Shown here piece after piece: positions 6,458-38,298 of a DNA stretch of 64,000 nt. Every line of letters starts with the position of its first letter. Within the stretch, counting starts at the first letter, position 1. Below the pieces are notes generated by a model that worked only from the letters and a program-made list of their open reading frames with translations, had not been told where the DNA came from and ran no database searches. Both the position numbers and the translations under genes were made by a program. The DNA is from a virus (taxonomy: Duplodnaviria; Caudoviricetes), in the IMG/VR virus record IMGVR_UViG_3300049573_000247, positions 1-64,000 of that record, one strand, 5' to 3'.

Positions 6458-6530
6458 AGCGGCAACCGGGGATCGAACCCGAGACCTTCTGGTTGGAGGC
6501 CAGACGCTCTACCAGCTGAGCTACTGCCGC
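6458..6530 (-). tRNA. tRNA-Gly(UCC), C33 variant
   Basis: Cloverleaf GCGGCAG...TTGCCGC-U73; anticodon arm TCTGG-CCTCCAA-CCAGA. Confidence 0.88.
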
Positions 6531-6531
6531 G

Positions 6532-6604
6532 TGCCCAAGGCAGGATTCGAACCTGCAACCTTCCGGTCCGGAACCGGATGCTCTGTCCGTTGAGCTACCT
6601 GGGC
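6532..6604 (-). tRNA. tRNA-Arg(CCG)
   Basis: Cloverleaf GCCCAGG...CTTGGGC-A; loop TT-CCG-GA. Confidence 0.93.
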
Positions 6605-6868: not shown

Positions 6869-6898
6869 CGGTCGCGGCCGGTCGTGGGCCGCGCCTTC

Positions 6899-6927
6899 AC
6901 GATACCGGTGCGCAGCGCGGGCGCCAA
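6899..6927 (-). promoter_or_regulatory. putative promoter of the tRNA cluster
   Basis: TTGGCG-17 nt-TATCGT, 30 nt upstream of tRNA-Val. Confidence 0.55.
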
Positions 6928-6935
6928 CGGGTTTT

Positions 6936-6968
6936 TGGTGGGGCGCAACGGTTCGAATGTTGCGCCCC
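6936..6968 (-). ncRNA. tRNA minihelix-like hairpin A ending ACCA
   Basis: GGGGCGCAAC-ATTCGAACC-GTTGCGCCCC-ACCA. Confidence 0.6.
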
Positions 6969-7010
6969 AGATGTGCGGAAAGGCAAACTCACTGTAGCAG
7001 CAGGAGGGTG

Positions 7011-7292
7011 CTACAGCCCCTGCTGCCGCTGCCGCTGCTGCTGCGCGATGAGCGCGGTGCTCGCGGCCGTGTTCTTCAGGTTGATGTCCTGATTGGACTC
7101 GCGAACCAGGCGGTCCATGCGGAACATGTCGATGAACCACAGCATGAACAGTCCGCCGAACGAGAGGCTGTAGCCGACCCCGCGCGGCGTGTTGCCCAGG
7201 TAGTAGTGGTGGCCGCCGACCCAGCCGAGGGTCCAGTACCACAGGTAGGCGCGACCGAGGGTCTTGTTCTGCTGGTAACCGTGGGGGGGCAT
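7011..7292 (-). CDS. TM2-domain membrane protein
   Basis: AYLWYWTLGWVGGHHYYLG...SFGGLFMLWFIDMFRMDRLVRESN; GAAGGAG RBS. Confidence 0.85.
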   Translation of the reverse strand: MPPHGYQQNKTLGRAYLWYWTLGWVGGHHYYLGNTPRGVGYSLSFGGLFMLWFIDMFRMDRLVRESNQDINLKNTAASTALIAQQQRQRQQGL

Positions 7293-7426
7293 GAGAGCTC
7301 CTTCAGAGGGGCGCGCGAGCGCGCGGTGAGATTGTTTCACCCATGGTACGACCGAGGGCCGCCAGCGCGGTGCTGGCGCCCCTCAATGGATGCCTGGGTC
7401 GACGCGGGCGGTGCTCGCGGTCGTAG

Positions 7427-7837
7427 TGGTGGGGCGCAGCGAATCCCTTGCCGCGCCCCACCCTTTGAGTCGACGCCCATGATCAAGGCGTTTCCCATCG
7501 TGCTCCCGGAGGAACACGAGCGTAAGGCCTGGAGGCAGCGATTCGACCCGCTGCCCCCAGGGGGAGAGCACTCTGTTGCCTCAGAGCGATCTCCATGTGC
7601 TCGCGCCAGACGGAGGCTGCGTAGCGGAGAGAAAAGTGTGTGGTGGGGCGCAGCGTTCCAATCGCTGCGCCCCGGTGCCGCCGTCAGGAGCACGTTCTTG
7701 TCGGGACGCGGCGGTTGCAGACGCCGCGTCCCTTGTGCGGGTGATGCCCCAGATCAAGGTGTGGTGCCACTGCGGGGCGCGGCAGGCTTCGACTACCGCG
7801 CCCCGATTCCCATGTGGACACCCATGATCAAGGCATC
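7427..7837 (-). repeat. array of related minihelix-like hairpins B-F with interspersed UGAUC(A) elements
   Basis: Hairpins at 7427-7459, 7530-7558, 7641-7673, 7699-7732, 7773-7805; CCTTGATC(A)TGGG motif at about 7473-7492, 7743-7761, 7817-7837. Confidence 0.75.
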
Positions 7838-7868
7838 GGACCCCGCGTCCCGCGAGAGACGCAAGTAG

Positions 7869-7948
7869 TGGTGCGCCTGTGAAGAGACCGCTTCAATCCC
7901 GTGAACTGGCTTTCTTTGCACAACGGGGGTCGTGCGTGCGCCAGGCGC
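7869..7948 (-). ncRNA. 80-nt tRNA-like RNA with 7-bp acceptor stem and ACCA
   Basis: GCGCCTG...CAGGCGC-ACCA with stacked TGAAG/CTTCA arm and GCACGAC/GTTGTGC arm. Confidence 0.55.
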
Positions 7949-7960
7949 TGCGCAGCACCG

Positions 7961-7968
7961 ACTGTACC
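7961..7968 (-). promoter_or_regulatory. putative -10 element upstream of the structured-RNA array
   Basis: GG-TACAGT 12 nt upstream of the tRNA-like element. Confidence 0.4.
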
Positions 7969-8230
7969 CCATCCGCCGCAGGCCGAGCGAGGAACCTTCA
8001 CACGTCGTGTCCCCGGCGGCGCCGGGCCACATCGTCCAGGCGCGCAGCGATGCGCTCCCCGGGTGCGTGCGCGCCCTGATGGGCGTCCTGGCGCAGGCAT
8101 CCTTGGGGGTAGCGGCCCTGGAAGGCGCGGGCCGTGAGTGCGCCGCAGCGGCCCGGTGCGGCGACGGTGCTGCGTCCCCGGGGGACGGTCTCGGTGAACT
8201 CCTCGATGTCGATCCGCTCCAGCCACGGCA

Positions 8231-37128: not shown

Positions 37129-38298
37129 CTACTCCCCCTTGACGTTGACGATCTGGCGCAGTTTGTGCACTACGCTCACGAGGTCGGCCGCGTCTTCCAT
37201 GATCTGGTCGATCGGCTTGTACGCGTCGGGGATCTCGTCCAGGAACGCCGCGCTGTCACGCCATTCGATGCCGATCATGCGCTCACGCAGCTGCTCGTGG
37301 GTGAACGCGGCTTTCGCCTTCGTCCGCGAGTAGTTGCGGCCCGCGCCGTGGGGGCTGGAGTTGAACGCGACCGCGTTCCCCTTGCCTTCCACGACGTAAG
37401 AGGCAGTGCCCATCGAGCCGGGGATGAGTCCCATGCGGCCCGCCTCGGCGTTGATGGCGCCCTTGCGGGTGACCCACAACTGCTTGCCCCAGTGCTGCTC
37501 CTTGGCGGTGTAGTTGTGGTGGCAGTTGATCTCCTGGTCCACCACGATCTCGGAGTCGCTCCACGCCTCGAACGCGGTGATCATGCGGCGCATCATCTCC
37601 ACGCGGTTCTGTTCGGCGAAATCCTGGGCCCACATCATTTCGCGGATGTAGTCCCAGAACTCGGGCGTCCCCTCGGCGAGGTAGGCGAGATCCTTGTCGG
37701 GCAGGTCGATCCACCACTGCTCGCACAGTCGCTGTGCGACCTTGATGTGGTGCTGGGCGATGCGGTTGCCGATGCCTCGGCTGCCCGAATGCAGGAACAA
37801 CCAGACAAACCCTTCCTCGTCTACGCAAAGCTCACAGAAGTGGTTGCCCGATCCTAGGGAACCGAGGTGCATCTGCCAGTTCCCCAGGTAGGAGGAGGGC
37901 GTGAAGCGGGCCGTGACGGCCTTGGCTTCGAGGTACTCGATCGCCTGCTCGGCCGTCTCGGTCAGGTGCGTGTTGATGCCGCCCTTCCCCAACGGGATGG
38001 CCTGCTCGATGGCCTGGCGCACCACCGACAGATCCAGGTGGGCGATCTGGTCGATGTGGTGGCGGGTGCGGACGGCGGCCATGCCGCAGCCGATGTCGAC
38101 GCCGACGGCGGCGGGGATGATCGCGCCGTCGGTGGGGATGACGCTCCCGACGGTGGCGCCCTTGCCGTGGTGGGCGTCGGGCATGACCGCCATGTGCGGC
38201 CACACGAACGGCATCGACGCCGTCCGCTCGACCTGCTCGCGGGCGCCCTCTTCAAGGATCGACGCCCAGCTCTTCGCCTTGTCAGTGAGTTCTTCCAT
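37129..38298 (-). CDS. rtcB: RtcB RNA ligase
   Basis: MPDAHHG, VGVDIGCG, LGSLGSGNHF, LHSGSRG, HHN, RKGA, IPGSMG, SPHGAGR, DEIPDAYK. Confidence 0.97.
   Translation of the reverse strand: MEELTDKAKSWASILEEGAREQVERTASMPFVWPHMAVMPDAHHGKGATVGSVIPTDGAIIPAAVGVDIGCGMAAVRTRHHIDQIAHLDLSVVRQAIEQAIPLGKGGINTHLTETAEQAIEYLEAKAVTARFTPSSYLGNWQMHLGSLGSGNHFCELCVDEEGFVWLFLHSGSRGIGNRIAQHHIKVAQRLCEQWWIDLPDKDLAYLAEGTPEFWDYIREMMWAQDFAEQNRVEMMRRMITAFEAWSDSEIVVDQEINCHHNYTAKEQHWGKQLWVTRKGAINAEAGRMGLIPGSMGTASYVVEGKGNAVAFNSSPHGAGRNYSRTKAKAAFTHEQLRERMIGIEWRDSAAFLDEIPDAYKPIDQIMEDAADLVSVVHKLRQIVNVKGE

Follow-up and report, generated by a model that had tools for sequence, protein, structure and literature searches.

Does a stretch of phage DNA that opens and closes like a tRNA, with a 7-bp acceptor-type helix and an encoded 3' ACCA, hold a tRNA gene overlooked by the standard finders, or an RNA of another kind that carries a tRNA-like end? 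We analyzed this question for an 80-nt element (76 nt plus ACCA) in the window, the 64,000 nt of DNA that form the first 64 kb of a 141,154-bp IMG/VR virus record with 65.6% G+C and an estimated completeness of 99%. The element, here called the Y element, lies on the minus strand inside a ~650-nt non-coding stretch, begins 49 nt past the stop codon of a 78-aa gene, and has the same orientation as all neighboring genes; RecD2-like and UvrD-like helicase genes flank the region. When the window was searched at the nucleotide level against deposited phages, the only matches were true tRNAs and no cultured relative was recovered, and the best match of the helicase in a phage collection is below 40% identity, so that no deposited phage is close. 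The first-pass annotation had described a tRNA-shaped RNA at this locus; the strings it quoted are all present, letter for letter, but on the minus strand, running from 7948 to 7869. The parts of the element and the genes around it are as follows.

8000-7998, minus strand: stop codon of the 78-aa ORF, the upstream neighbor of the Y element
7961..7968, minus strand: -10-like box GGTACAGT (TANNNT), with the end of the hexamer 12 nt before the closing stem
7949..7960, minus strand: 12-nt spacer from box to stem, which would hold the transcription start and a leader of ~4-6 nt
7942..7948, minus strand: 5' strand of the closing stem, GCGCCUG (acceptor-like, 7 bp), invariant in 8 of 8 distinct versions
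7936..7941, minus strand: junction strand GCGCAC, invariant in the near clade of relatives except for C to U in contig L072
7918..7935, minus strand: hairpin 1, GCACGAC-CCCC-GUUGUGC, 7 bp including one G.U pair
7880..7917, minus strand: hairpin 2, whose purine-rich 5' strand (AAAGAAAG..) pairs with a pyrimidine-rich 3' strand (..UCUCUU)
7873..7879, minus strand: 3' strand of the closing stem, CAGGCGC, invariant in all versions
7869..7872, minus strand: ACCA tail, directly after the closing stem
Downstream of the non-coding stretch, minus strand: TM2-domain gene
6868-6341, minus strand: tRNA cluster Val-Leu-Arg-Gly-Pro (ARAGORN), ~1 kb downstream of the Y element
37135-38235, minus strand: intact RtcB-family RNA ligase gene (402 bits)

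The placement of the start and leader within 7949..7960 is deduced from the usual spacing between a -10 box and its start. Hairpin 2 contains an inner UUCA/UGAA helix and an apical loop with GGGAU, and the last two bases of its segment (CA) are unpaired. As first described, the stem of GCGCCTG (7948-7942) and CAGGCGC (7879-7873) is followed by ACCA (7872-7869), the arm GCACGAC-CCCC-GTTGTGC is found at 7935-7918 with one G.U pair, the central A-rich segment is present as purine-rich AAAGAAAG, and a -10-like element (GGTACAGT, 7968-7961) stands 12 nt upstream of the stem; the 3' flank ACCACTAC is likewise identical to the flank of a hairpin at 7459-7427.

The element had been expected to escape tRNA finders, and it does. 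ARAGORN made no call at the Y element at its default setting, with -ps95, -ps80 or -ps60, or in its -mt, -mtmam and tmRNA modes; Rfam returned nothing there at the gathering threshold or at E<=10, and the models RF00005, tmRNA, YrlA, Tymo_tRNA-like and mascRNA gave no score at this position. For a tmRNA, the third stem pair is moreover G-C and not G3.U70. For a bacterial Y RNA of the YrlA type there was no match at the Y element, and the single weak YrlA match in the scan falls on true tRNAs at 6470-6590; domain searches of the phage found neither a Ro (TROVE) protein nor a CCA-adding enzyme. A retron msr-msd RNA was ruled out, as the RVT_1 (reverse transcriptase) domain is absent throughout the 141-kb record. 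What the element does share with tRNAs is a 7-bp acceptor stem, an A discriminator and a 3' CCA (GCGCCUG/CAGGCGC + ACCA). The reported absence of canonical tRNA loops was accurate, with no T-loop or D-loop motif, no anticodon arm and no cloverleaf, and the likeness to tRNA accordingly holds for the acceptor-like stem and ACCA but not for the overall shape, since the conserved architecture is a three-way junction. We conclude that the Y element is a candidate non-tRNA small RNA of phage with a tRNA-like end, not a hidden tRNA, and that it matches no Rfam family and is so far confined to one uncultured phage lineage. The end resembles that of the phage's own tRNA-Lys(UUU) gene (46451-46376, minus strand): stem pairs one to five are the same in both, as are the A discriminator and CCA (GCGCC.../...GGCGC-ACCA); judged from the sequences, this likeness could be due to chance, common descent or mimicry. 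ACCA is directly encoded after both the tRNA-Val and the tRNA-Lys genes of the phage.

The 7+5 geometry of a tRNA top half, which had been read from a 5-bp arm (TGAAG-CGGTCT-CTTCA) stacked on the stem, did not survive. The arm does abut the 3' strand of the stem, but it occupies 7880-7895, inside the hairpin 2 segment, where it competes with the hairpin 2 helix; its ensemble probability in the window is ~0.01, and the fold that contains it is 4.5 kcal/mol worse than the fold that pairs the A-rich segment with UCUCUU. Its loop of 6 nt has no T-loop motif. The fourth pair of the arm is a C.U mismatch in the related contigs L002, L003, L072 and L074, and in L075 the arm is absent and cannot be drawn. 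As it is disfavored here and mismatched in relatives, the top-half geometry is accidental and owes its presence in this genome to a single base, A7892. Conservation of pairing among related elements, the test that had been proposed for the structure, is therefore seen for the Y-shaped fold, which occurs in all versions, but not for the T-like arm.

Relatives of the locus were gathered in two ways. A helicase search led to the near contigs L002 and L003 (~82-90% nucleotide identity) and to the more distant L004, and searches with the neighboring 78-aa and TM2 proteins added four more near-clade contigs, L072, L073, L074 and L075, and four that form a sister clade, L076, L078, L079 and L080. Together these provide eight distinct versions of the element, all from uncultured phages, with lengths of 80, 81, 83, 85, 86, 101, 106 and 108 nt. 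Because these lengths differ by numbers of nucleotides that three does not divide, a reading frame is ruled out and the element is non-coding; two small ORFs that run over it (7793-8032 and 7828-8226) were rejected because indels in relatives break the frame.

The minimum-free-energy fold of all eight versions is a Y, made of the closing stem, hairpin 1 and the long hairpin 2, with a strand of 5-6 nt before hairpin 1 and 1-2 unpaired bases before the 3' stem strand. In the isolated window element the pairs of the closing stem have a probability of 0.97-1.0. Throughout the near clade, the outer helix of hairpin 2 is an imperfect one in which a purine-rich segment is paired with the pyrimidine-rich segment before the 3' stem strand. 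Two compensatory pairs were counted in hairpin 2, both in this outer helix (A:U exchanged with G:C in L074, and G:C with A:U in L002), and several further hairpin 2 pairs change on one side and remain paired. More distant versions rebuild the same parts from other sequences: L075 has a GC-rich stem of wholly different sequence as hairpin 2 and keeps the base of hairpin 1 with an inserted GCCC-GCAA-GGGC tip, and the sister clade has the same GNRA-capped tip on a hairpin 1 of different sequence in the same position, together with a hairpin 2 whose sequence is different again. The apex of hairpin 2 (GRGAUKG) is the only motif conserved across this deep divergence, which makes it the likeliest contact site. 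G.U pairs in both hairpins identify the minus strand as the strand that folds.

Covariation was counted with end-anchored registers because both available alignments were flawed: MAFFT/RNAalifold on six versions misaligned the variable center and predicted a spurious helix, and the model-based alignment handled L075 and L076 poorly. In a shuffling test with three sequences, 190 of 500 shuffles reach the observed covariation value. Fold z-scores of the isolated element are -1.4 to -2.0 for the window, about -1.4 for L002 and L072, and -2.7 to -4.05 for most relatives. The closing stem never varies and so receives no support from covariation; its invariant sequence could instead reflect a constraint at the DNA level or recognition by a protein. 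The near-clade versions are close kin, and the features they have in common may have been inherited rather than selected. On this evidence we consider it very probable that the Y element is a functional structured RNA element on the minus strand.

Constraint on the element can be compared with that on its neighbors in the three-genome alignment of the window, L002 and L003, in which 80% of the columns of the Y element are invariant vs 55-67% of third codon positions in two adjacent genes; the stem strands and ACCA are 100% invariant, and the 59 nt downstream of the element are also 80% invariant. ACCA is kept in the six near-clade versions (window, L002, L003/L073, L072, L074 and L075), and the sister-clade contigs L076, L078, L079 and L080 have GCAA in its place after the same stem. 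A second copy was sought in the 141-kb genome with a covariance model and none was found, so that the element is single-copy there; one weak match within the neighboring hairpin array (7545-7619, minus strand, 17.6 bits, E 0.16) is probably spurious.

The distant contig L004 has an 82-nt Y-shaped spacer directly between its tRNA-Trp and tRNA-Leu genes, with the motif UUCA..GGGAUKGACGCGGUC in common with the Y element. Shuffled sequences score as high as this spacer in 5 of 300 cases for L002 and L003 and in 119 of 300 for the window, and the covariance model gave no match to L004. It is possible, from this marginal sequence likeness, that the Trp-Leu spacer is an embedded relative of the Y element, which would speak for a connection with tRNA processing. 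Elsewhere in the tRNA array of L004 (5949-6815), four inter-tRNA spacers have a spanning stem; they fold very stably, with the stem spanning nearly the whole spacer, and their z-scores are -3.3 to -4.5 for three and -2.5 for another. The tRNA arrays of these phages may generally carry structured 'passenger' RNAs of tRNA size.

Whether the element is transcribed on its own bears directly on its structure. The upstream box reads TACAGT or TAGAGT within a longer GCGGTA(C/G)AGTC, and its 12-nt spacing from the stem is fixed in both clades and in all relatives. Elsewhere in the genome, at 138553 (minus strand), GGTAGAGTCGG follows a TTGACG hexamer at a canonical promoter spacing of 17 nt; at the Y element itself no -35 hexamer was recognizable and a consensus promoter scan was silent. 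We would give about even odds that the element yields an independent transcript. The box is present twice in the sister clade (L076 2440-2480 and 2605-2734; L078 130-170 and 296-423), the first copy being joined to a 3' stem strand with no other part of the element (CACAGGCGC, then ACCG or GCCG), and from its sequence this first copy looks like the deletion remnant of a second copy of the element.

As modeled, the Y fold depends on the start and end positions of the transcript, and its closing stem is formed with confidence only by an RNA that begins no more than ~7 nt before it and stops not far beyond ACCA. The closing stem forms (P 0.8-0.92) when the leader is 5-7 nt and the 3' end lies 4 nt past ACCA, but it is out-competed when at least 12 nt of upstream RNA are included, and a downstream extension of 40 nt has the same effect except where the transcript starts exactly at the stem (P 0.45). 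In the disfavoring contexts its probability falls to 0.0-0.13 in the window and to at most 0.05 in four relatives. Two alternative foldings compete: the 5' stem strand is placed in the loop of a UGCGC/GCGCA hairpin, or the 3' stem strand pairs with a downstream UGCGUCU and the C-rich hairpin-1 region with a downstream GCGGGG. The 40 nt after ACCA (7829-7868, minus strand) are as conserved as the Y element and can pair with it. The models thus allow a possible two-state arrangement of the element and these 40 nt, which is not conserved in L074; there the downstream partners are missing and the region's last hairpin comes immediately after the Y element. Since the element is intact in L074 without these partners, the Y fold is the conserved one.

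The explanation we favor, with a probability of roughly 45%, is that the locus encodes a small RNA with a transcript of its own, and that RNase P and the machinery for tRNA 3' ends act on its helix-plus-ACCA end. It would be a non-coding RNA gene of ~80 nt on the minus strand, folded as a three-way junction in which a 7-bp helix joins both ends, hairpin 1 takes the position of a tRNA D-arm, and hairpin 2 takes that of a T-arm at a distance of 1-2 unpaired bases from the closing helix. Transcription would start a few bases past the TACAGT box; the short leader, the 7-bp helix and the 3' ACCA would then be recognized by RNase P and the 5' end trimmed, while the 3' end would be trimmed back to ACCA and protected there, as for a tRNA gene that encodes its CCA, leaving a stable small RNA as the product. 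Maturation of this tRNA-like kind is proposed because a leader, a 7-bp helix and ACCA make up the minimal signature of an RNase P hairpin substrate; a helix followed by 3' RCCA is found in the window and in five relatives. Taken by itself, end formation by RNase P or of the CCA type is argued by analogy with such substrates and is a tentative part of the proposal.

The main rival is that the Y element acts in cis, as a structured segment of a longer transcript, either in the 3' UTR of the 78-aa gene or in a leader that precedes the hairpin array, the TM2 gene and the tRNA cluster, where it could serve as an RNA stabilizer, as processing punctuation or as a conformational switch. Its position so soon after the 78-aa stop, on the strand of its neighbors, suits such a role, and no intrinsic terminator was found in a scan at or after the element, whose tail is ACCACUAC. 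A second conformation is as stable or more so in the longer context, the next 59 nt are equally conserved, and the stem-ACCA hairpins downstream resemble repeated punctuation. Against these observations stand the -10-like box, which keeps its fixed 12-nt distance in both clades and is duplicated together with what appears to be an element remnant, the intact element of L074, which has neither the partners of the alternative folds nor the hairpin array, and the sister-clade element, which lies ~230 nt from the gene, behind another hairpin. We regard the cis-acting role as possible, though on the unlikely side.

Hairpins downstream of the Y element also end in ACCA. Between 7997 and 6869 the minus strand has eight ACCA, six of them outside the TM2 coding sequence, and a stem of at least 7 bp directly precedes five of these six, a strong enrichment over the 4.9% seen genome-wide. 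Three of the five are members of a single repeat family, which leaves as independent cases this family, the Y element and a second tRNA-sized element at 7424-7344. The ACCA after two small hairpins is not conserved even among close relatives. A hairpin of the form GGGGCGC..GCGCCCC has four copies in the 141-kb genome, all within 6869-7997 (minus strand), and several loops of the hairpins in this interval resemble T-loops (TTCGAAC). This second element (7344-7424, minus strand, 81 nt), just upstream of the TM2 gene, has a 7-bp stem ACGACCG/CGGTCGT followed by ACCA and an 11-bp hairpin stacked on that stem; in the same place L002, and largely L003, have a long hairpin (with a 19-bp perfect stem in L002) and ACCA, and the window version has a 36-nt insertion in its 5' strand.

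From the Y element to the TM2 gene, the array is highly variable among relatives. L074 (2810-2848) lacks it, L003 (12060-12330) has it rearranged, and in L002 (12240-12310) it is shortened, apparently by recombination between two repeat hairpins; only the Y element and the last hairpin stay constant across these variants. Array hairpins are also preceded, at three places (7814-7834, 7740-7760 and 7469-7489), by copies of a 12-bp box that is nearly palindromic (CCTTGATCATGG, minus strand) and that from its sequence resembles an operator to which a dimeric protein would bind, or else an RNA motif.

A more far-reaching idea, and a decidedly speculative one, is that the Y RNA and the neighboring stem-ACCA hairpins would form a set of phage-encoded tRNA 3'-end mimics without anticodon, whose targets would be host enzymes that recognize nothing of a tRNA but its acceptor end. 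They could be decoys or sponges for defense toxins by which tRNA 3' ends are modified or cut (nucleotidyltransferases of the MenT/AbiEii type or pyrophosphokinases of the CapRel type), or, alternatively, mini-substrates that are CCA-repaired or even charged. The tRNA-Lys-like stem, with its first five pairs, and the phage RtcB would fit an arms race centered on tRNA; a literature search for phage tRNA-end decoys found nothing relevant.

The locus could also work at the level of DNA, as a promoter with an operator, a single-strand initiation site or another replication signal, with the GCGCCTG/CAGGCGC inverted repeat and the palindrome GCGCCTGGCGC serving as protein-binding sites. In favor of such a role, neither stem strand shows any change among relatives that have otherwise diverged, palindromic GCGCCTGGCGC stands right after the -10-like box, and helicase genes lie on either side. 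Against it, the repeat arms are separated by anything from 62 to 94 bp, as would be expected of the closing stem of an RNA but not of a paired operator; the two interior hairpins keep G.U pairs that are mismatches on the other strand, and in the sister clade the palindrome is no longer perfect. GC skew does not switch near 7-8 kb, and an origin of replication at the Y element was dropped for lack of a skew change. We judge a DNA-level function to be quite improbable.

A decayed tRNA gene, in which the acceptor stem and CCA were kept and the D, anticodon and T arms mutated away, would account for the tRNA-like size, 7-bp stem, A discriminator and CCA, for the location ~1 kb upstream of a tRNA cluster, and for the five leading stem pairs and ACCA identical to those of tRNA-Lys(UUU). 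However, there is no residual score with Rfam at E<=10 or with ARAGORN down to 60% thresholds and neither T-loop nor D-loop motif; relatives reach 108 nt, and the interior has been selected for a different fold, the Y, with compensatory changes that are unexpected in a decaying gene. This origin we hold to be highly unlikely.

Stems with such an end are in themselves frequent. A 7-bp stem followed by NCCA has 278 instances in the 141-kb genome, and scans of IMG/VR and the JGI metagenomes with the exact-end pattern returned 15 unrelated, mostly coding stretches of public contigs, the only true matches being two already known relatives. A motif scan for hairpin 2 gave 45 loci; all except L003 and L004 are unrelated, and several of the unrelated ones recur in apparent coding DNA. 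Stems of 7 Watson-Crick pairs with ACCA that span 60-95 nt number 12, and a directly stacked 5-bp arm accompanies just two of them, the genuine tRNA-Lys and the Y element. That an inverted repeat arose here by chance in GC-rich intergenic DNA and does nothing of its own is nevertheless scarcely credible, for although these counts and the modest z-score of the window fold would allow it, conservation is above the level of synonymous sites, eight versions have the same architecture with compensatory changes, and the upstream box stays at a fixed distance.

Several known RNAs resemble the Y element in part. The tRNA gene cluster of phage T4 includes stable small RNAs of unknown function, the species 1 and 2 RNAs, which are likewise structured non-tRNA RNAs associated with tRNA genes of a phage and presumably depend on tRNA-processing enzymes for their maturation; in L004, the possibly related element directly between two tRNAs extends this likeness. 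There is no homology between them, however, and the Y element lies ~1 kb upstream of its cluster with a -10-like box of its own. GOLLD and ROOL are large, ornate phage RNAs that adjoin tRNA genes. The Y element is also a structured phage RNA candidate near a tRNA cluster, and some of its versions have a GNRA-capped hairpin, but it is smaller by an order of magnitude and has no Rfam match, and the 650-nt non-coding region around it is fast-evolving and rearranged between close relatives. With tRNAs and tRNA-like structures (the tmRNA domain, YrlA, viral TLS and mascRNA) it has in common the 7-bp terminal helix, the A discriminator, CCA and the size, and with the tRNA-Lys of the phage 5 of 7 stem pairs; it differs in having no cloverleaf, T-loop, D-loop or anticodon arm.

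The closest parallel for the proposed maturation comes from RNase P itself. Bacterial RNase P cuts non-tRNA hairpin substrates through the RCCA-RPR interaction, and among phage non-tRNA RNAs it cuts the M3 RNA of phi80 and the C4 antisense RNA of P1/P7 (PMC11143913). Like these, the Y RNA would be a small phage RNA whose ends pair into a helix with an RCCA-type tail behind it. It is not related to them by sequence or by Rfam family, and the status of the Y element as a substrate is predicted; M3 and C4 belong to enterobacterial phages, whereas the Y element belongs to an uncultured high-GC phage and its CCA is absent in the sister clade. The three-way junction of the Y element is presumably a further contrast with the phi80 and P1/P7 RNAs.

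If the Y element is only a cis-acting structured spacer, it would be an ordinary feature of phage intergenic regions. If it is transcribed, it would represent a new family of small RNAs, carried by large (~140 kb) high-GC phages of an uncultured lineage. Its interest lies in the joining of a non-tRNA body to a tRNA-style end, beside a stem-ACCA array, a tRNA cluster and an RtcB ligase, the last of which suggests that tRNAs or other RNAs cut in the course of infection are repaired. This raises the question of whether phages use the tRNA end machinery of the host, RNase P and CCA maintenance, to make or stabilize RNAs that are not tRNAs, or alternatively whether phage RNAs may distract the enzymes that read tRNA ends.
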